Shown here: positions 5,517-14,592 of the stretch, piece by piece
Layout of the letters: each line of letters begins with the position of its first letter
How positions within the stretch are numbered: position 1 is the stretch's first letter
Assembly (NCBI GenBank): GCA_963726255.1
Contig: CAVSBL010000002.1
Coordinates: 512,001 to 576,000 of the forward strand
Reading direction: 5' to 3'
Source: Candidatus Bathyarchaeota archaeon
GTDB taxonomy: Archaea; Thermoproteota; Bathyarchaeia; 40CM-2-53-6
Length of the DNA stretch: 64,000 bases
Translations under genes and position numbers: made by a program
Notes under the pieces: model-generated
Database searches by the model: none
Told to the model about the DNA's origin: nothing
Seen by the model: only the letters and a program-made list of their open reading frames with translations

Positions 5517-6626
5517 ATGCCTGACTTAGTCAAGAAGAATATTGAGATAGACGATGAGACAGGAGCCATTAGTGGATCTCTGACCTACGCGAACGCAAAG
5601 GTTCCTGTCCCAAACAAATTTGCAACCACAACAGAACTGAATGCAACCAAGTTGGTCGGGTTGAAGCAAGACTTCCCGACCGAAATCGTGATCGCGGGAA
5701 AACTGATTTACCCCGAGACTCTGAAGCGTATACTGAAAGAGGAGGAGTTCCTCAAAGAGTTCGCAAGGCGGCTTGCACGAGAAACGTCAAGTCACGAAGA
5801 CTCGTTGAGTATGCTCTTTCTCGTACTGAAGGGCGAAGCCGCCATCGTAGAATCAAGTGACTTACGAACGGTTCTCGACCTCCAATATTTCGCTGATATG
5901 GACGTAGTTACCGTTCAGCAGAGCCCAGGTGTTTCTCCGAAGGATTTCTTCACCCTGTACCGGTTCGCTGAACGGTGGCTGGATAACAGGGGCTTGGACA
6001 AGCCACTCATGCCAGTCTTGACGCCTACTGAAACGAAACAGGACTTCGATAAGATTCTAGGGCAGGTTTTGAAGAGGGGTACAAAGCTGGTCGGGTTCGA
6101 CATGAGAGGGGGCTTCTACTACCAAGCCCTCCGCTCTTTAGAGGAGGCGAAGAAGAAGGATCCGAGCCTCTGGGTTCATGTGTTCCAGGTTCCGCCGAAA
6201 ATTCGCTTCGCTCGAAGCATGCTTCGCTGCTCGGAGGGTATGATGCTTCCACTCTTCGGCGTAGACAGTTTCAACAGGTGGGTTGTGCCACCCCCGCCCG
6301 TTCCACTCACGAAGGACAAGATCAACAGGTTCGATTCCACGAACTGGGGAGTCTTCAAACGAAAAGAGTGGACCGAACAGTACGGCCCAACTCTGCACTG
6401 CACGTGCCCTATGTGCAGCAAACAGCGGCTGCCCACCTTCTACTTAGGGCAGGTGCTTACAGTTTTGGGGAGGAGTAAGGTCCACGACCATTACGCACAA
6501 CGCGAGCAGCTCTTACAATTGTCCTCCCACGTTAAGAGTGGAAACGTGAAGAGCTTCGTCTCTAGGAAGAAGTATCCAAAGGATTTTCTCGCGCAGGTAA
6601 CCAAGTCGGAATCAGAAGCGAGTTAG
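5517..6626 (+). CDS. tRNA-guanine transglycosylase (TGT)-fold protein, divergent
   Basis: TGT-like N-terminus (TGAISGSL..VP..F), LQ...DVV, VHVF, GVDSF and Zn site CTCPMC...H; lacks DSGG; AGGAGA SD-like sequence upstream. Confidence 0.65.
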   Translation: MPDLVKKNIEIDDETGAISGSLTYANAKVPVPNKFATTTELNATKLVGLKQDFPTEIVIAGKLIYPETLKRILKEEEFLKEFARRLARETSSHEDSLSMLFLVLKGEAAIVESSDLRTVLDLQYFADMDVVTVQQSPGVSPKDFFTLYRFAERWLDNRGLDKPLMPVLTPTETKQDFDKILGQVLKRGTKLVGFDMRGGFYYQALRSLEEAKKKDPSLWVHVFQVPPKIRFARSMLRCSEGMMLPLFGVDSFNRWVVPPPPVPLTKDKINRFDSTNWGVFKRKEWTEQYGPTLHCTCPMCSKQRLPTFYLGQVLTVLGRSKVHDHYAQREQLLQLSSHVKSGNVKSFVSRKKYPKDFLAQVTKSESEAS

Positions 6627-7252
6627 AGCTTCGCCTCAGCCATCTTAGTCATCAGGGCTCGGAGGTCAACTTCCGAATTCGTTCTCCAACCTAGCCCCAT
6701 CACACCCGCATCATCTTCGTCAAGGTATCCTGTTCGGAGAAATATGTCGACAAGCGTTGCGGCCTTCCAGCGGCCGAACTTATGGGCGAGCAGTTTCTCG
6801 AGGTCTTCGCGTGGGGCCTTGCCTTGCTTGGAGACCAAATATGCAATGGATGCGCTCAGGGCTGCTAAGTTGTCGACTCGCCAACCGATCATCTTTGCTT
6901 CCTTAAGGCCCAGGGTCCCTTTCAGAATGACCTGGTACCTAGCCTCTTCGAGTGGGGCGCCTTCAGGTGTAATCTCACCTGTCGGAGTCTCTTTCACTTT
7001 CTTAATTTCCAAATCCAGTTCGGATAATAGTTGGTTCAACTGTCCGAGGACCTGTTCGTAATTCTTCCCCAACTTCTCCTTCAGTTCCCAGTCCTTAGCC
7101 CCGGGCATTTTGCCGCGTCGGAATAGAAGTAGGTGAACTGCACGCTTCAGCTTGTCTGAGTAGAAACTCTTAGGTTCTGTCTGCGTCTGTGTCGTTCCAG
7201 TGGTTTCAGCAGATTTTGCTTCAGTGGCTTCCGTGGTTGCCAACTTTCTCAA
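6623..7252 (-). CDS. KITE (tandem winged-helix) subunit, MAGE/Nse3/ScpB-like
   Basis: Third gene of the SMC operon; two WH-like halves; FLRTGYL...LGWRTNSE resembles the MAGE/Nse1/Nse3 WH-B end. Confidence 0.6.
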   Translation of the reverse strand: MRKLATTEATEAKSAETTGTTQTQTEPKSFYSDKLKRAVHLLLFRRGKMPGAKDWELKEKLGKNYEQVLGQLNQLLSELDLEIKKVKETPTGEITPEGAPLEEARYQVILKGTLGLKEAKMIGWRVDNLAALSASIAYLVSKQGKAPREDLEKLLAHKFGRWKAATLVDIFLRTGYLDEDDAGVMGLGWRTNSEVDLRALMTKMAEAKL

Positions 7253-8037
7253 GCTCCTTGTGGAATCGGTATCGGAAAACTCACACCGCCTTCAATTGCC
7301 TTCTTCGAAGGCTCATCCATCGGGACTAGCATGAGCTGTTCGCCTTCAGTTTGGAGTTTGGCGTAGCCGTAGGTTACGAGGAAGCTTACGAAGTAAGCCC
7401 TCTGGACCGTTTCGTGGTATGACTGTGCATGAACGAATTTCCAATAGTCAATTGGCTTCTGATCAGTGTACTGGGCTCGGAGTTCTTCCCATAATGATGT
7501 GAGCAGTTTTCCGAACTCTTCGCCATGGATCCCCAAACCGGACAGTGTTGAAGAGTCGGCGGTTTCAGGTTTCTTGCCGCCCGAGTAGTCCCTCCGTTTC
7601 CACCTCTCCGAGATAGGCAAGAGCAGGTTCCAGTAGTCGAGGGATAGGGTGACGGCTTCGTTGGTTAGCTGTTCTAATTCTGCGAGGGGGTGCCAACTTT
7701 GGAGAAACACTTCGGCGAGCCGTTTCTCGCTCATTCGTTCAACTTTCCGCGTGATGAATTCGGGGTCGGCGTAGAGTGCGCTGGATTGGAATTTGAGCTG
7801 GGTATTCTGGAGGCGGACTACCTCTGAGAGTCTGTTGAGGGTGTGTGCGTCGAGGCAGTGGTCGTCGAAACTCTCCCAATGTGGGAAATACTCTCGAAGA
7901 GTTTCCACTCCCAGTTTAACATCCATGAAGAAGGGGTTGAACCTCCTCTCTGAAATCGCTTCGCAGGTCTCAATGATCTCCTCAAGCTCCTTTCTGCCAG
8001 ATGCGAGCATGCGCTTTCCTTTGGGTTTCTCAGTCAT
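7249..8037 (-). CDS. Kleisin (ScpA/Nse4-like)
   Basis: NPFFMDV resembles ScpA NPWDID; C-terminal winged helix with FVSFLVTYGYAKLQ; directly follows the SMC gene. Confidence 0.65.
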   Translation of the reverse strand: MTEKPKGKRMLASGRKELEEIIETCEAISERRFNPFFMDVKLGVETLREYFPHWESFDDHCLDAHTLNRLSEVVRLQNTQLKFQSSALYADPEFITRKVERMSEKRLAEVFLQSWHPLAELEQLTNEAVTLSLDYWNLLLPISERWKRRDYSGGKKPETADSSTLSGLGIHGEEFGKLLTSLWEELRAQYTDQKPIDYWKFVHAQSYHETVQRAYFVSFLVTYGYAKLQTEGEQLMLVPMDEPSKKAIEGGVSFPIPIPQGA

Positions 8038-8039
8038 GG

Positions 8040-9992
8040 TTACTTCAGCTCGCTAACTACCGATGTGCCGGCTATGTTCTGGACTACGATCACGTGGCTG
8101 TTCTCGGTGACGTTGACCTGTCCTGGCGTTATGGCCACATACTGCCCTCCAGTCATGGCCCCGGAGCTTGACATGATCAACTGCGTGACGAGTTCACGGT
8201 TCTTAGGGTCCATGTGAACGTCAAACTCGTCGATCGCCCTGAATGGGGAGGTGATGTGTTGTTGGAGCCCTAGCAGGAAGGCCATCATTGCTATGCTGCG
8301 CTCTCCGCCACTCTGCGTGAAGGCGTCGAGGGCGGTGGGTTTGTTTCCCTTGAACCCAACCATTATTTCCACACCACATTTCTCAATATCTCTGGAGGAT
8401 ACGAGCCGAATAGAACCGGTAGCGCCAACGGTTCCTAGGATTTCGTTATAGCGGCCGGTCAATTGTTCTAGGAAGGATGAGAGCACGTCCCGCCATCGGG
8501 AGAGGCGCTTATCAAGCTCCGTTAGAACCTCCTGGCGGTTCTGCGCAACTTGGTCGGCCTTCTGCTTCAGCTCTTCGTAGACCTTCGCGTAGGACGAGTA
8601 CATCTTTTCGACATCTGCCGAGAGCGTTGACAATGGCCTCATCTGCTCTTCGACGGCACCGATTTCCAGCATTATCTCAAGGTTCTTTCTCGGCGATTCC
8701 ACGGCGGCGCCAGTCTTCTCCGCTGCGGCAACCATCGGGTCCAACTCTTCTTTGGCGAGACGAACTTGGGCTTGGAGGTCTGCTACTTCCTCTGTGAGGA
8801 GTTTCCTCTTGAACCCTGAAACCTCATACTCCACGTTCGTGTCGATGAGCCTTGTGAGCGCATCTTCGAGGCGGCCGCTGGTGTCAGCTAGTTTTTCGTT
8901 GAGCGAGGACATTTTCTCCTTCACTCTCGCCAGCTTGCCCTGCGACTCCTCAGCCGTCTCCCGCCAAGAGTTCTTCATCTTGTCGAGTGATTGTAAGGGA
9001 GGTTTAGGCGGCTGTGCCTCTTGCTCGGCCTCAACGGATTGGAAGTTCTGAAGGAGGTTTGTAGTCCATTCGATGTTCAGCTCATGTGTTGTGAGTTGCT
9101 TCACGAGGTCAACCCGTGAATCTTCGAGTTCCATTCGTCCAAGGTTTAATTCGTCAAACTTTGCCTGGCGTTTCTTCTTCGACTCCGCGAGCTCTTGGAT
9201 TTTGTTCTCAATCGATTGTAAAGCTCGCGTCTTCGATTCAATTCTGGCTTCGATGTGAGTTAATGCTTCCTTCTTCCTCTGGATCCGGCTCCACAAGAGT
9301 TCCCTCTTGAGGTTTTCCAGTTTCGTTTCCAGCTGCTGTTTCTGCAAGTAGCGCTCGTACTCACGCTTCCAATAATCATGAGTCTCCTTAGTGGATTCAA
9401 GAACCTGGGCGAGGGATTGCTCTTCGCTTGCGACACTTTCTAGGCGCTGTCTGGCGTCAATGACTTCTTCTCTATATGATTCGAAACCAACGGCTTCCTC
9501 AAGCATCTTCAACTTGTCTTGGGCGGTTACGGCGGCGAAGCGGCCGACCATGAACTGGTGCATGATGACTAGTATGTTGTCGGGGTTCAAGCCGAGGGAA
9601 AGAAAGGCGTCGGTGATTGCTGATTTAGGCGCTGGCTTGTTCTGGAGGAGATAGTAGTACGTGCCTGTGCTCTTGATTACTCGCGTGATGGTGACGAGGT
9701 CGGTGTGGAAGCGGGGGAATGGGCGTCTCTCGCCTGTATTATCGAGGATTAGTGTGACTCGGGCTTCGTCGTGTCCCCACTTTACAAGATCGCTCAACCG
9801 CTTGGACCGTTCAGTGTAAGCTTGGCCCAGAACTACGGAAACCGCAAGGAGGATGGAGGATTTTCCGGCTCCGTTCGGGCCACAAATGAGGTTCAGCCCG
9901 GGCTCTAACGGGACGTATGAGTTTTCGTAGGACATGAAATTTGTGAGCACTACGCCTTTTATCATCTGAGCCGAGCTACCGTTTGAAACCAT
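8040..9992 (-). CDS. Short SMC-family ATPase with Smc5/6-like head
   Basis: LTNFMSY, GPNGAGKS, QSGGERS, PFRAIDEFDVHMD; coiled coils between the head halves; only 650 aa. Confidence 0.85.
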   Translation of the reverse strand: MVSNGSSAQMIKGVVLTNFMSYENSYVPLEPGLNLICGPNGAGKSSILLAVSVVLGQAYTERSKRLSDLVKWGHDEARVTLILDNTGERRPFPRFHTDLVTITRVIKSTGTYYYLLQNKPAPKSAITDAFLSLGLNPDNILVIMHQFMVGRFAAVTAQDKLKMLEEAVGFESYREEVIDARQRLESVASEEQSLAQVLESTKETHDYWKREYERYLQKQQLETKLENLKRELLWSRIQRKKEALTHIEARIESKTRALQSIENKIQELAESKKKRQAKFDELNLGRMELEDSRVDLVKQLTTHELNIEWTTNLLQNFQSVEAEQEAQPPKPPLQSLDKMKNSWRETAEESQGKLARVKEKMSSLNEKLADTSGRLEDALTRLIDTNVEYEVSGFKRKLLTEEVADLQAQVRLAKEELDPMVAAAEKTGAAVESPRKNLEIMLEIGAVEEQMRPLSTLSADVEKMYSSYAKVYEELKQKADQVAQNRQEVLTELDKRLSRWRDVLSSFLEQLTGRYNEILGTVGATGSIRLVSSRDIEKCGVEIMVGFKGNKPTALDAFTQSGGERSIAMMAFLLGLQQHITSPFRAIDEFDVHMDPKNRELVTQLIMSSSGAMTGGQYVAITPGQVNVTENSHVIVVQNIAGTSVVSELK

Positions 9993-10167
9993 GGTTGCCT
10001 TCTGCTGCGTAAAAAACGTTCAGGGATTTTGGGACCCTTCTCCATGGACGCTTCTTATTCTCCATGAGTTCATGCGATTTTGAAATTCCGAAAAATACAT
10101 TCCGCGCTGCATTTGTTCACAATAGAGTAAAGACAAATTATATTGAACGAAAAAACTGCGGCGTACG

Positions 10168-11435: not shown

Positions 11436-14400
11436 CTATTGCTTCGCCGTGCTTTTTCCGCCTAATCTTGCTTTCTCGAATAGGCCGAACTCATACGTTT
11501 CTGACCCAATCTGCCACGCCTTAGTGTAGTAGGGAATCTTTGTTTGTTCTCTTTTCGTAGTAATTGTCAGTTGTTTTGCCCGAACTTCCCCGGCGATGTA
11601 ACTTCGCTTACCTTTGAGTAGATTCGCGGCGTTTGCTGACGGTGCGAGGATGTAGGCGTTCACGTACGAGTCCACCTTGAGGTCCATTTCCTTTCGCATT
11701 TGCTGCATGCGCCTTACAGCGTCTCGAGCTAAGCCTTCGGCCAGTTCACTCTTCGTAAGTTTCAGGTCAACGTATACTGAGCCGTCAGCGAATTCGGCTT
11801 TAGCGAAACGTGCGGGTTCTTCGTATTTCGAACTTGCAGCCCTGTCGGTTGAAGTCAGGGTTCTTGTGTTTGCTTGATCAAGAACGAGGGTTGAGTAGGT
11901 CTTCAGGGCCTTTCGCACACGTTTGGAGTCGGTTGCCACCACTATGCGTGGGACAGGTTGCCTTTGTTTCATCGCCTTTTGCATACGGGCTACGGCGACC
12001 GTAGAAATCACATCTTTGGCTGCATTCATCTCTTCCTCAAGGGAGTCGCTGATCCACTTCTCGTCGAATTGTGGCCAGTCAAGCAGGTGTACGGTCTGGG
12101 GGAGTTTCGGTTCAGCGTTCCTGAACATGTGTTGGTAGATTGATTCAGTTAGGAAAGGCGTTATTGGGGTTAGCATTATGAGAGCAGCTTTAAGGGCCGT
12201 ATAGAGGGTTGTGTATGCTGCCAGCTTGTCTCGTGTTTGTTTCTCAACCCATGTTCGGCGCCTGATGAACCTGACGTATGTGTGGCTTAGGTCCTCCACT
12301 AGGAAGGTTTTGAGTTTTCGAACCGCTTCATGGATCTTGTATTCTTCCATTAACGTGGTTGCTTCTTTGATTGTCCGGTGCATTCGGCTTAGGAGCCATC
12401 GGTCCTCAGGGCGCAGGCTGCGCGTGAGTTGCTTCAAAGACATTTTTGGTGAGAACTTGTCTAGGCACATGTATGTGCTCGCGAAGACATAGGTGTTCCA
12501 GAATGTGCTCAAGTCACCGCTGTATTGTTTGACAGCGTCCCATGAGAATCGGAGGTCTTCCCACAACGTGGTCTGGAGAACATAGTAGCGGAATGAGTCT
12601 CGGCCGAATTTCTCTGTAACCTCATTGGCCGTAACGTAGTTGCCTCCTGACTTATGCATTTCACGCCCTTCGGAATCAAGTGCGAAGCCGTGCATCAGGA
12701 CAGTCTTGTATGGTACCTTGCCCATCGTCACCATTCCGCTTTTCAGAAGGGCAAAGAACCACAGCGTTACCTGGTCGCGTCCCTCTACGATGAAATCGGC
12801 AGGCCACCAGTATTTGGTCTCAGAACTATTCTTCGGGTATCCCAAGCATGCCAGTGATGCGCCACCCGAGTCGAACCAAACGTCCATAACGTCCGGCACG
12901 CGGGTCATGTCGGCTCCGCAGTCGCATCTGAACTTTACTTTGTCGATCCAAGGCATGTGCAGGGTTGGCAGGTCCACCGGTGAGGTCGCATTCTCAAGGA
13001 GTTCTTGCTTTGACCCGATGATCTTCCGTTTTCCACAGGACCCACATGTCCACACTGGAAGCGGGGTGCCCCAGAACCTCTGGCGTGAGATCACCCAGTC
13101 TCTCAATGCCCCAAGCCAATTCTTGAACTGGACGGCTCCAGCCCACTCAGGGATCCATAGTGTAGAGTCGACTTCTTTGATGAAGGCATCTTTCTTCTGT
13201 GCGATTCGGATGAGCCATTGGTCGGTCGCGCGGATTATGAGTGGCGTTTTGCAGCGCCAACAAGCGGGGCTTCGGTGTTCTATTTCTTCCCGTGAAGAAG
13301 CATTCCAAGCGATTTCAGATCATCAATTACCTCAGGGTTTGCATCTCTAACGGGTTTCCCTGAGTACTTCCCAGCTTCAGGAGTTAACTTTCCTTGGTCG
13401 TCGACCAGCATTAGGACGGGTAAGCCGTAGCGTACGCCCACTTCGTAATCTTGCTCTCCATGACCTGGTGCGGAGTGAACGCATCCAGTCCCTTCCCCAA
13501 GGACCACGTACTCCTTGCTTAGAACAACTCGGTGAGCATTTTTCAAGTTGCGTTGAGCGGGAACCAAGCTTTCCAGAGGGGAGCGGTAAACCAAACCGTC
13601 AAGTTTCGTTCCAGGGAAACTTTCTAGAAGCTGCATGGTTTGGCCTGAGGCCTTTGCGACCTCTTCTATTCGTTCCTTTGCGAGTATGAACGTCTCCTGT
13701 CCCGATCTAACTCTTGCGTACTCAAAATCTGGGTTCACCATGACGGCCACGTTTGATGGTAGCGTCCAAGGCGTTGTCGTCCAGATCAGTACGAACTCGT
13801 CTTGCTTGCTTTCCACGGGGAACTTCACGTAGATCGATGGGTCTCGAACCATCTTGTACTCTAGGGCAACCTCGTAATCCGAGAGGACCGTTTCATCCTG
13901 AGGGCACCAATGTACGACTCTCTGGCCGTGCTCAAGGAGTCCCTTCGACGCCGCTTGCTTGAAACCCCACCAGCCGCTCTCAACATAGGAATCCAGATGC
14001 GTCATGTAGGGCCGGTCCCAGTCCATCCAGATGCCCAGATCCTGGAAAGCCCTTGTCAGTGAAGCCGAGTTCGTTTCTGAGAATCGTTTGCATTCCGTGA
14101 TGAACCGTTCGAGTCCGAAGCTTTCTATTTCCTTCTTAGTTTTGACGCCAAACTTCTGCTCTATCGCGAGCTCAACGGGCAGGCCATGGCAGTCATAGCC
14201 CGGTTGATCCCTGACATTGAACCCGCACGAACGTTTGTAGCGAATTACAGTGTCCTTCAGAACCTTGCCCCAAGAGGTTCCTATGTGGGGTTGGTCCGCA
14301 CTAGGGAAAGGAGGGCCATCTAGGAAGTAGAATTTTGGATTTTTGGATTTTGCCTTCTTTACTGCTTCGTATGTTTGGTTTTCTTCCCAGAGAGTCTTTA

Positions 14401-14461
14401 CTTCGCTTTCAACTACTTTGGGGTCGTATTGTTTCGGCAGTTCGCCAACGTGCTTGCTCAT
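11436..14461 (-). CDS. ileS: Isoleucyl-tRNA synthetase (1-nt frameshift at about 13290, likely assembly error)
   Basis: DGPP, HIGT, DCHGLP, WTTTPWT, DWVISRQR, EMHKS; one extra G joins the two ORFs as LLHGEEIEHRSPACWRCKTP. Confidence 0.95.
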
Positions 14462-14477
14462 TACCGTAACCTCTGCT

Positions 14478-14592
14478 TGTCGGGTCCTACGAGAATTCCT
14501 GGATGATTTCGCCGCATTGATTGATAACAATGCCAGTAAGTATGCTTCAGAAGCTTACTGTTCGATTTCTCGGTCACCTTTCACCGGCGACA
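14478..14592. promoter_or_regulatory. Nested stem-loop structure in the ileS/kae1 divergent intergenic region
   Basis: Four nested or adjacent helices: TGTCG/CGACA, CGAGAA/TTCTCG, GCATTG/CAATGC, CAGTAAG/CTTACTG. Confidence 0.4.

Follow-up and report, generated by a model that had tools for sequence, protein, structure and literature searches.

A short SMC with a predicted apex loop in place of a hinge, encoded beside an Nse4-like kleisin and a probable kite subunit in a Bathyarchaeota genome

The window (the whole stretch of DNA that was analysed, 64,000 nucleotides from a Candidatus Bathyarchaeota genome) carries on its minus strand an operon of three adjoining genes, for an SMC protein, a kleisin, and a third subunit. 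The genes, and the parts of the SMC protein, lie at the following positions.

6623..7252, minus strand: probable kite subunit (Nse1/Nse3-MAGE-like), 209 aa; 4-base overlap with the kleisin stop
7249..8037, minus strand: Nse4-like kleisin, 262 aa, from Pfam and an ortholog profile; 2-base gap downstream of the SMC gene
8040..9992, minus strand: predicted hinge-less, SMC5/6-related SMC gene, 650 aa, from the ORF, Pfam, a Smc5 match, and a structure model
8043..8432, minus strand: C-terminal half of the ATPase head, residues 521-650, from invariant columns, with signature S561-E564, Walker B D588 E589, and H593
8433..8990, minus strand: C-terminal arm, residues 335-520, predicted by AlphaFold2, with breaks at 428-436 and 455-460
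8991..9020, minus strand: predicted apex loop, residues 325-334, where the coiled coil turns; low pLDDT, highest arm entropy, no Cys
8991..9032, minus strand: motif EAEQEAQPPKPPLQ of the first-pass annotation, residues 321-334, mid-protein and within 8900-9100
9021..9482, minus strand: N-terminal arm helix, residues 171-324, about 23 nm, predicted by AlphaFold2
9483..9992, minus strand: N-terminal half of the ATPase head, residues 1-170, from invariant columns and a high-pLDDT fold, with Walker A G38-S45 and Q-loop Q146

The product of 8040..9992 is a genuine SMC with an intact ABC-type head split between its N and C termini. Pfam SMC_N covers residues 10-630 of the 650-aa protein (E 4.3e-33), and the Walker A, Q-loop, signature, Walker B, and H-loop residues are invariant across 63 homologues (N34, G38, P39, N40, G41, G43, K44, and S45 through to Q146 in the N-terminal part of the alignment). 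The best match among the sequences of solved structures is yeast Smc5 (2.4e-34), with archaeal Smc behind it (2e-28). Among fold matches of the model, a structure of the Pyrococcus Smc head that includes coiled coil and joint comes first (5xei, E 1.3e-22), followed by yeast Smc5 and Smc6 chains (about 1e-21). Scores against the NCBIfam SMC equivalogs are well under the cut-offs (202.4 vs 729.4 bits for SMC_prok_A and 177.4 vs 567.35 bits for SMC_prok_B), and membership in RecN was rejected on the TIGR00634 score (39.9 vs 407.85 bits) and the presence of the kleisin operon. The length of 650 aa given in the first-pass annotation holds for the annotated frame; since homologues begin at query Met10 (MIKGV...) and not at residue 1, however, the true start is probably Met10 at 9965, which would make the real protein 641 aa.

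In the AlphaFold2 model built with a 63-row alignment (mean pLDDT 85.8), helices at residues 171-324, 335-427, 437-454, and 461-520 form an antiparallel coiled coil of roughly 23 nm; its turn is a short loop that is unstructured and evolves fast, and a single-sequence model has an identical arm topology. No globular domain appears between the arms in this model; the apex is instead a 10-residue loop (325-334, block pLDDT 49-58). Pfam SMC_hinge (PF06470) has no match in the 650-aa protein at E <= 0.1, and the same search found the domain in the canonical SMC of this genome (1.3e-24). There is no cysteine between residues 234 and 465, and therefore no CxxC hook. The first-pass annotation, which had claimed that the hinge is missing, with no room left for one, and that there is no zinc hook, was thus right on these points. 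The interruptions in the C-terminal arm appear joint-like and may represent the SMC joint. The arm length is arithmetic, the 154 residues of the N-terminal helix multiplied by 0.15 nm per residue; since the figure given for a canonical SMC arm in the abstract of PMC5526789 is 49 nm, the earlier description of half-length arms is fair.

The arms are unevenly conserved. The N-terminal arm is conserved to about residue 250 and variable beyond, both across the 63 homologues and among 120 close homologues among the matches listed. In the latter set, column entropy is 2.9 bits at residues 321-330 and 1.8 bits at 331-340, and residues 371-420 are the most conserved arm stretch (0.06 to 0.36 bits). 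Within the arm, variability peaks at the apex among the close homologues listed, and the apex cannot be aligned among distant ones. Across the 63 homologues, 137 to 270 residues separate the anchors W234 and Y465, and the distal arm (about 250-385) is conserved in neither sequence nor length, which makes a specific distal-arm interface doubtful. The Pro-rich turn proposed earlier is indeed a mid-protein loop between the arms, but its Pro-richness is restricted to this organism and its near kin.

The genes downstream point to a kleisin-associated SMC, as had been presumed. Pfam Nse4_C matches the 262-aa kleisin at 1.8e-5 (25.4 bits against a cut-off of 26), and a profile built from 21 orthologues finds EID3 (2.6e-5) and yeast Nse4 (1.4e-3) and does not match any ScpA chain; the kleisin's C-terminal winged helix shows weak similarity to the ScpA of this genome (hhalign E 7.7e-4, probability 25%). 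In 29 of 30 loci the kleisin gene lies directly after the SMC gene, and the order SMC, kleisin, third gene is kept in 28, the remaining two ending at contig ends; four of four loci in three further families repeat it. Judged from sequence and gene order, then, this SMC is probably associated with the Nse4-like kleisin encoded alongside it. The third gene encodes a conserved protein of 180 to 230 aa across loci (28/30) that is probably a kite subunit of the Nse1/Nse3-MAGE-like type: Atlas leads to MAGE clusters (0.90 and 0.81), and among 21 family members weak Pfam matches occur to SMC_Nse1 in two (best E 0.023) and to MAGE in one (0.058). Neither the single protein nor the 21-row profile has a significant match among PDB sequences, hhalign detects no similarity to the ScpB of this genome, and a profile search of a large protein collection returned, among the matches listed, only "hypothetical" archaeal proteins without Pfam domains.

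The surrounding genes are housekeeping genes, namely Gar1 (identified by Pfam) and TFB and IleRS (read by eye from ORF translations). PADLOC returned no match for the kleisin, the third subunit, or a neighbouring 369-aa protein, and only generic head matches for the SMC (mad3 104.5 bits, LmuB 52.9, and JetC 32, the last to the N terminus alone). Together with the neighbourhood, these results led us to reject a reading as a Wadjet (JetABCD) or Lamassu defence system.

Head phylogenies were obtained from quick IQ-TREE searches with 87 rows and with a 49-row subset. The 87-row tree excludes proteins that do not carry both Walker A and SGGE or are cut at an end (P0152, truncated at its N terminus, is left out), and it includes the canonical SMC of this genome, which is absent from the subset. 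In this tree, 48 short forms and two hook-bearing forms make up one group (SH-aLRT 85). A wider group, starred in the tree (SH-aLRT 98), unites the short forms with Smc5, Smc6, and the long relatives P0163 and P0204, and places the canonical SMC of this genome outside; the 49-row tree gives a matching picture (SH-aLRT 95). A weak full-length hinge match is present in P0163 and none was found in P0204. The heads of the short SMCs are thus placed with eukaryotic Smc5/Smc6 and with archaeal relatives that probably bear a hinge, and in the 87-row tree away from the canonical SMC of this genome. One hook-bearing lineage appears to have re-extended the arm and added a CxxC motif. A search with a hook insertion (P0144, residues 302-717) matched 12 proteins, all of its own family, and pointed to neither Rad50 nor ASRP as a donor. 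Rad50 and ClsN/Sph (ASRP) resemble the present family in that something else replaces the hinge at the apex, and in that hook-bearing relatives exist within the family; unlike them, the 650-aa SMC has no CxxC. Membership in Rad50, ASRP, or arcadin-4 was rejected for the same absence and for low scores (Rad50_Sulf 65.4 vs 1000, ASRP 56.3 vs 300, Rkd4 33.4 vs 860).

This placement and the operon identify the protein, at the level of sequence, as the SMC subunit of an archaeal SMC5/6-related complex that phylogenomics has already described, a precedent that the first-pass annotation overlooked. Operons for an SMC5/6-related SMC, an Nse4-like kleisin, and an Nse1/3-like kite are reported from TACK and Asgard archaea in the accessible portions of van Hooff et al. 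(bioRxiv 10.1101/2024.01.07.573240) and Yoshinaga & Inagaki 2021 (PMC8665677). As far as those portions describe the complex, ours agrees with it in operon type (an SMC, an Nse4-like kleisin, and a short third gene), in occurrence within TACK including Bathyarchaeota, in the placement with Smc5/Smc6, and in coexistence with a canonical SMC operon. The same portions portray the archaeal proteins as dimerising through hinges, and the searchable literature on these complexes makes no mention of hinge loss or short arms, although supplements may list lengths.

Eukaryotic Smc5 and Smc6 are heterodimeric, hinge-bearing proteins of about 1100 aa. In sequence and fold they are the nearest relatives with solved structures, the kleisin profile matches Nse4/EID3, and the lead for the third subunit is MAGE/Nse1-like; unlike eukaryotic Smc5/6, the archaeal operon has a single SMC gene of 650 aa with no detected hinge. 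"Hinge-less" SMC homologues of marine Actinobacteria, with heads on a hinge-free coiled coil, are also described and are abundant in metagenomes (PMC12153180, seen in part). According to the available text, these are bacterial and branch within Actinobacteria, unlike the SMC5/6-related archaeal clade; the word "kleisin" does not occur in that text, nor does a kite in its passages on the hinge-less proteins.

Of 301 genomes sampled from the phylum, 154 have the short form, which occurs in 66 of 123 genera. A search of genome contigs with the family alignment relied on generic Walker A and Walker B patterns, and the true relatives among the matches listed come from two MAGs, one of Thermofilales and one of Thaumarchaeota, the rest being canonical SMCs from bacteria and others. 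The present genome also encodes a canonical 1183-aa Smc in a Smc-ScpAB operon, and its Rad50 (677 aa, CPTC hook) sits elsewhere with Mre11 and HerA. In one family of the phylum (f19) we found the hinge-less complex only: 24 of 25 genomes have the short SMC, an SMC hinge was found in none of the 25, a canonical SMC query matched only the short protein in five of five genomes, and ScpA was found in none of those five. The suggestion that the gene offers a natural test of whether the hinge is dispensable therefore needs a qualifier. Here the short SMC is an extra paralogue beside a hinge-bearing Smc-ScpAB, and the test becomes strong only in families in which the hinge-less complex alone was found.

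Two copies of the arms (residues 171-520) were modelled together and scored 0.58, against 0.00 for the best control, the controls being unrelated proteins and not other coiled coils. In calibration, 20 of 30 proteins with solved pair structures reached the mark, as did 1 of 23 with single-chain structures. At least 91% of contacts are shared among the three runs, partner pLDDT is at least 80, and the contacts are in register (301:301, 309:309, 294:294, 386:386), that is, parallel. In this one model the arms lie side by side and not tip to tip. Structure predictors readily place helical hairpins side by side. Dimerisation through the coil tips, as first proposed, is not what the model predicts; the broader suggestion that heads, kleisin, and/or coiled coil hold the dimer together was right in spirit, but not if a conserved Pro-rich tip element is meant, the tip being the most variable part.

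We consider it probable, at about 60%, that this protein is the SMC subunit of an archaeal SMC5/6-related SMC-kleisin-kite complex that lost its hinge and the distal halves of its arms in a phylum-wide branch. Two SMC protomers would be joined by ATP-driven head engagement, and a single kleisin would connect one protomer's neck to its partner's cap, the arrangement established for SMC-kleisin complexes in general. By packing in parallel as a rod, the two short arms probably help to hold the protomers and probably substitute for the hinge in closing the SMC compartment. The complex may clamp DNA atop the engaged heads and beneath the kleisin-kite module, acting as a short-stroke DNA clamp or translocase for genome maintenance.

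In SMC models, the hinge is central to dimerisation, to closure of the DNA compartment, and in some complexes to DNA entry or head contact; the roughly 50-nm arm is treated as a tuned lever, and engineered hinge deletions are hard to interpret. In this clade, evolution would have run the hinge-loss experiment many times, keeping the kleisin and third subunit while arm length varied about two-fold. Since neither a hinge-bearing SMC nor ScpA was found in f19, any SMC-kleisin work in those cells would be done hinge-free. The grouping with Smc5/Smc6 could likewise make the clade a minimal, homodimeric, three-gene model of the least understood eukaryotic SMC complex. A bolder and more tentative proposal, to which we give rather less than even odds, is that an SMC-kleisin-kite assembly that lacks a hinge, has 23-nm arms, and is sister to eukaryotic Smc5/6 functions fully as a chromosomal SMC machine and is the sole one in at least one archaeal family. 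Its apex would be an exchangeable module: a hinged ancestor would have given rise to the bare variable loop of most TACK lineages, and one Bathyarchaeia lineage would then have gained about 416 coiled-coil residues with a conserved CxxC at that loop, losing the adjacent kleisin and kite genes. If this is true, neither hinge nor 50-nm arms are required for the core SMC reaction.

The conservation pattern of the arm is also what a clamp of heads and kleisin only might show, in which the arms never pair stably, no SMC compartment is closed, and heads, kleisin, and kite form an ATP-gated clamp. Constraint is weakest at the apex and in the distal arm (apex entropy 2.9 bits in the close homologues among the matches listed), the two anchors are 137 to 270 residues apart, an about two-fold variation in arm length, and head, neck, and joint are conserved, as expected if function resides near the heads. 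We nevertheless think this explanation unlikely, if a serious competitor. The arm-arm model beats its unrelated controls (0.58 vs 0.00), and the arm is never fully lost, the shortest representative keeping 429 residues from Walker A to the signature. That one lineage re-extended its arm and added a CxxC suggests that apex linkage matters.

RecN is a bacterial SMC-like repair ATPase of similar size, with a short antiparallel coiled coil and neither a globular hinge nor a zinc hook; it dimerises through its tips and provides a precedent for a working hinge-less SMC-family ATPase. This resemblance in size and architecture, together with the weak NCBIfam recN match (39.9 bits), raises the alternative of a RecN-like tether, in which antiparallel, overlapping coil tips would form a rod some 45 nm long, its two ends each carrying a head module, and bridge two DNA segments. 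We regard it as improbable. That match is far under the cut-off, and, unlike RecN, which is not known to have kleisin or kite partners, this SMC has a kleisin operon, and a kleisin bridge between two heads requires the heads of one dimer side by side. The tip is hypervariable in the close homologues among the matches listed, and all three runs predict a parallel, in-register dimer, unlike the tip-to-tip arrangement, with no antiparallel tip overlap.

The presence of both SMC genes in this genome would also permit a heterodimer, in which the short SMC pairs head-to-head with the 1183-aa Smc and so borrows a hinge-bearing partner. Each SMC has a separate operon with its own kleisin and third subunit, however, and the f19 genomes carry the short SMC (24/25) with no hinge (0/25) and no ScpA (0/5) found, which makes such pairing very improbable.

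That a full-length SMC gene was stripped of its middle by misassembly, or is a decaying pseudogene, has a negligible chance, although a frameshift does disrupt at least one essential gene of the assembly (IleRS near 13280): length and frame are kept in close and distant homologues, contigs from four independent studies have no indels here, and the ATPase motifs are invariant. Comparison of homologue lengths, which had been suggested together with a read-level check for an assembly deletion, revealed no longer gene. Homologues at 76% to 99% identity are 631 to 653 aa long in 120 of 120 cases among the matches listed, and 47 representatives, down to about 33% identity, have 429 to 563 residues from Walker A to the signature motif. 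Contigs from four runs in four other studies span 7900-10100 without inserted or deleted letters; an 11.8-kb contig differs over 7900-9987 by 26 substitutions and 0 gaps. The joints seen in the read-contig comparison are short, very-high-depth pieces that match conserved motifs of other organisms and carry no weight.

The short SMC is encoded with its two putative partners in a run of three ORFs on the same strand:

8040..9992, minus strand: ORF call of the short SMC, 650 aa
7249..8037, minus strand: kleisin ORF, 262 aa, starting 2 bases past the SMC stop
6623..7252, minus strand: third-subunit ORF, 209 aa, with a 4-base overlap with the 262-aa ORF

Residues 10-630 of the short SMC match Pfam SMC_N (E 4.3e-33), and the 262-aa protein matches Nse4_C (E 1.8e-5), its 25.4 bits falling just short of the cut-off of 26; no Pfam family matches the 209-aa protein. 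Among NCBIfam models the nearest to the short SMC is SMC_prok_A, whose 202 bits are far under the equivalog cut-off of 729, and the protein falls even further below the cut-offs of the Rad50, ASRP, RecN, and arcadin-4 models. Since homologues start at query Met10, its true length is probably 641 aa.

The first-pass annotation described a protein with half-length arms and neither hinge nor zinc hook, and this description holds. Pfam SMC_hinge is not matched at E <= 0.1, no cysteine occurs between residues 234 and 465, and the predicted structure lacks a globular domain at the apex. The AlphaFold2 model (63-row alignment, mean pLDDT 85.8, pTM 0.60) has a normal SMC head, a single unbroken helix (171-324) that ends in a loop (325-334; block pLDDT 49-58), and return helices at 335-427, 437-454, and 461-520; a single-sequence model gave the same arms. 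The mid-protein motif EAEQEAQPPKPPLQ covers residues 321-334 (window 8991..9032). Assuming a rise of 0.15 nm for each residue, the first arm helix (154 residues) would measure ~23 nm, compared to 49 nm for a canonical SMC arm (PMC5526789). Head, neck, and joint are apparently kept, to judge from the two breaks in the modelled return strand and from the best fold match, which is to the Pyrococcus "Smc head with coiled coil and joint" (5xei, E 1.3e-22).

The short length is shared by relatives from many assemblies. In a search for close homologues, the 120 matches listed, at 76-99% identity, are 631-653 aa long. Among 1.84 billion representatives searched exhaustively, 130 proteins matched at E <= 1e-30. 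In 47 full-length representatives of the main clade, 429-563 residues separate Walker A from the signature motif (523 in the query). Across positions 7900-10100, contigs from four runs of four studies show neither insertions nor deletions; one of them (11.8 kb) aligns to 7900-9987 without gaps, differing by 26 substitutions. An assembly deletion is thus ruled out as the cause of the shortness by the homologue lengths and the contigs of independent studies.

The gene order SMC, kleisin, third gene recurs in 28 of 30 loci from the phylum, the remaining two being truncated by contig ends, and in all four loci from three further families. A kleisin profile built from 21 orthologues matches yeast Nse4 (1.4e-3) and the human Nse4 paralogue EID3 (2.6e-5), whereas no ScpA chain was matched. 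The C-terminal winged helix of the kleisin aligns weakly with the ScpA of this genome. By sequence, the solved structures closest to the short SMC are yeast Smc5 (2.4e-34), Pyrococcus Smc (2e-28), and Smc6 (2.9e-20). In a quick IQ-TREE phylogeny of head domains (87 rows, 331 columns, rooted on the Rad50 of this genome), 48 short forms and two hook forms, long relatives with a CxxC motif, constitute one group (SH-aLRT 85). It is nested in a larger starred group (98), to which two long clades, identified as eukaryotic Smc5 and Smc6, and two long relatives, P0163 and P0204, also belong; the canonical SMC of this genome lies outside the starred group. A 49-row subset tree agrees, and there P0163 (982 aa), which has a weak full-length SMC_hinge match (E 0.045), adjoins the short forms. 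The system is the archaeal "SMC5/6-related" complex (PMC8665677; 10.1101/2024.01.07.573240), described by Yoshinaga & Inagaki (PMC8665677) and, as operons of an SMC, an Nse4-like kleisin, and an Nse1/3-like kite in TACK and Asgard archaea, by van Hooff et al. (10.1101/2024.01.07.573240). Gene position and tentative family leads (MAGE and Nse1) point to a putative kite as the third subunit, which matched none of the solved structures searched by sequence.

Because outgroups and the nearest long relatives (canonical SMC, Smc5, Smc6, P0210, and P0163) have a hinge or hinge-like middle, the simplest reading is that the short clade's ancestor lost the hinge, on a question of gain or loss that trees alone cannot settle. 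Two further short proteins, P0202 (633 aa) and P0209 (628 aa), have no hinge match and form a separate branch near P0210, an 835-aa hinge-bearing protein of the Asgard archaeon "Freyarchaeum" (SMC_hinge 4.6e-11); they may represent an independent hinge loss. The apex has also been extended. Nested inside the short clade are two proteins of 1028-1047 aa, encoded in Bathyarchaeota MAGs, that form a starred pair; the hook-form proteins placed there (P0144, P0146, P0152, and P0452-P0462) are 992-1060 aa long. Aligned with its short neighbor P0130, P0144 is 55% identical over residues 1-301 without gaps and 48% identical over 718-1033. As judged from this alignment, P0144 is a short form that has gained ~416 residues of extra coiled coil precisely at the apex, and the other hook forms are read likewise. 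A zinc-hook-like CxxC motif (C[DE][KR]CGS) is present in the insertion in 16 of 16 sequences, and the insertion of P0144 has no match beyond its own family. At the one hook-form locus tested (L122, 3968..7144, plus strand), none of six flanking ORFs is a kleisin or third-subunit gene. Arms have also shortened in proteins that keep the hinge: P0234, P0236, and P0262 (828-844 aa) combine short arms with a hinge (SMC_hinge 6.3e-23 in P0234) and group with the canonical SMC of this genome.

The genome (2.42 Mb, five contigs) has three SMC-superfamily systems. Besides the operon described here, they include the following:

Locus L010, 3267..8089, plus strand: canonical Smc, 1183 aa (Pfam hinge 1.3e-24), together with the two ORFs behind it
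Locus L011, 1603..7848, minus strand: Rad50-like protein, 677 aa, with a CPTC motif, adjoining ORFs read by eye as Mre11 and HerA

The two ORFs behind the canonical Smc have the sizes of ScpA (223 aa) and ScpB (213 aa) and are named by position. Given these two systems, the short SMC is a further paralogue that has partners of its own. The 677-aa Rad50-like protein is itself unusually short.

Across the phylum, the short SMC is present in 154 of 301 sampled genomes and 66 of 123 genera (E <= 1e-20); the longest open frame is at most 774 aa among the 150 matches listed, with 126 further matches. SMC_hinge was detected in 123 of the 301 genomes, and its distribution differs between families.

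Short SMC and Pfam SMC hinge in families of the phylum (genomes positive/genomes sampled; a missing Pfam hinge is not equivalent to a missing long SMC)
Bathyarchaeia-class families: short SMC mostly present; hinge mostly present
f13: short SMC 0/43; hinge 43/43
f22: short SMC 0/20; hinge 0/20
f19: short SMC 24/25; hinge 0/25
f20: short SMC 7/8; hinge 0/8
f21: short SMC 11/11; hinge 0/11

Both f21 genomes examined (G010 and G026) encode a 1128-aa protein with a strong SMC_N match (119 bits), possibly a long SMC whose hinge has diverged or been replaced. In f19, whose sample includes two single-contig genomes, the sole SMC_N matches that exceed the Pfam cut-off within a long open frame come from a 593-aa protein; a further match lies in a 250-aa frame and reaches the cut-off only together with its neighbors. 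A canonical Smc query retrieved a 593-602-aa protein in five of five f19 genomes, one of which also yielded 907-aa and 233-aa frames, and ScpA was found in none of the five searched. The hinge-less complex is thus, as far as searched, the only SMC-kleisin system of f19.

Head engagement and kleisin bridging are established for SMC-kleisin complexes, and by analogy would provide the primary link between two hinge-less protomers. The first-pass annotation offered this route or dimerization through the coil tips. A sequence-specific motif for tip dimerization is unlikely because no stretch varies more than the apex (2.9 bits at 321-330 and 1.8 bits at 331-340 in 120 close homologues). Across 63 homologues, conservation covers the heads, the N-terminal arm up to ~residue 250, and the C-terminal arm from ~residue 385; the stretch between is not alignable, and the spacing of the anchors W234 and Y465 varies between 137 and 270 residues (median 220). 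One part of the return helix, with variable arm next to it, is near-fixed in the 120 close homologues (0.06-0.36 bits):

8733..8882, minus strand: near-invariant mid-arm stretch, residues 371-420

This stretch may serve in binding a partner or in contact between the arms, and residues 379-395 lie within the predicted arm interface. Two copies of the arms (171-520), modelled with the family alignment, scored 0.58 (median of three runs), while the highest of three controls scored 0.00. In the calibration of the method, this mark is reached by 20 of 30 proteins with solved pair structures and by 1 of 23 whose solved structures are single chains. The runs agreed on at least 91% of contacts, with pLDDT of at least 80. 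The modelled contacts are in register (301:301, 309:309, 294:294, 386:386, and also 438-449), forming a parallel, side-by-side rod. As a prediction, the model supports binding, with the qualification that predictors tend to pair helical hairpins and that the controls were not coiled coils. Such packing would be a probable stand-in for the hinge.

The complex itself is of an already known kind. The lack of a hinge in its SMC was not found stated in the full texts searched; the supplements of the two phylogenomic papers may list protein lengths. The nearest report concerns "hinge-less" SMC homologues in marine Actinobacteria, in a text where the word kleisin does not occur (PMC12153180). The hinge-less, half-armed architecture, its spread, its status as sole SMC in one family, and the hook-bearing offshoot appear, in the literature searched, to be undescribed.

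The genes flanking the operon look like archaeal housekeeping genes: Gar1 was identified by a Pfam match, and TFB and isoleucyl-tRNA synthetase (IleRS) by reading translations. Hosts named on close homologues of the short SMC are Bathyarchaeia. A 369-aa ORF (5517..6626, plus strand), convergent with the end of the operon, matched nothing in Pfam, NCBIfam, or PADLOC. The IleRS gene (11436..14530, minus strand) is broken into ORFs of 416 and 556 aa by a frame shift near 13280-13290, immediately ahead of the ...CWRCKTPLI... segment, which could be either an assembly error or a real break.
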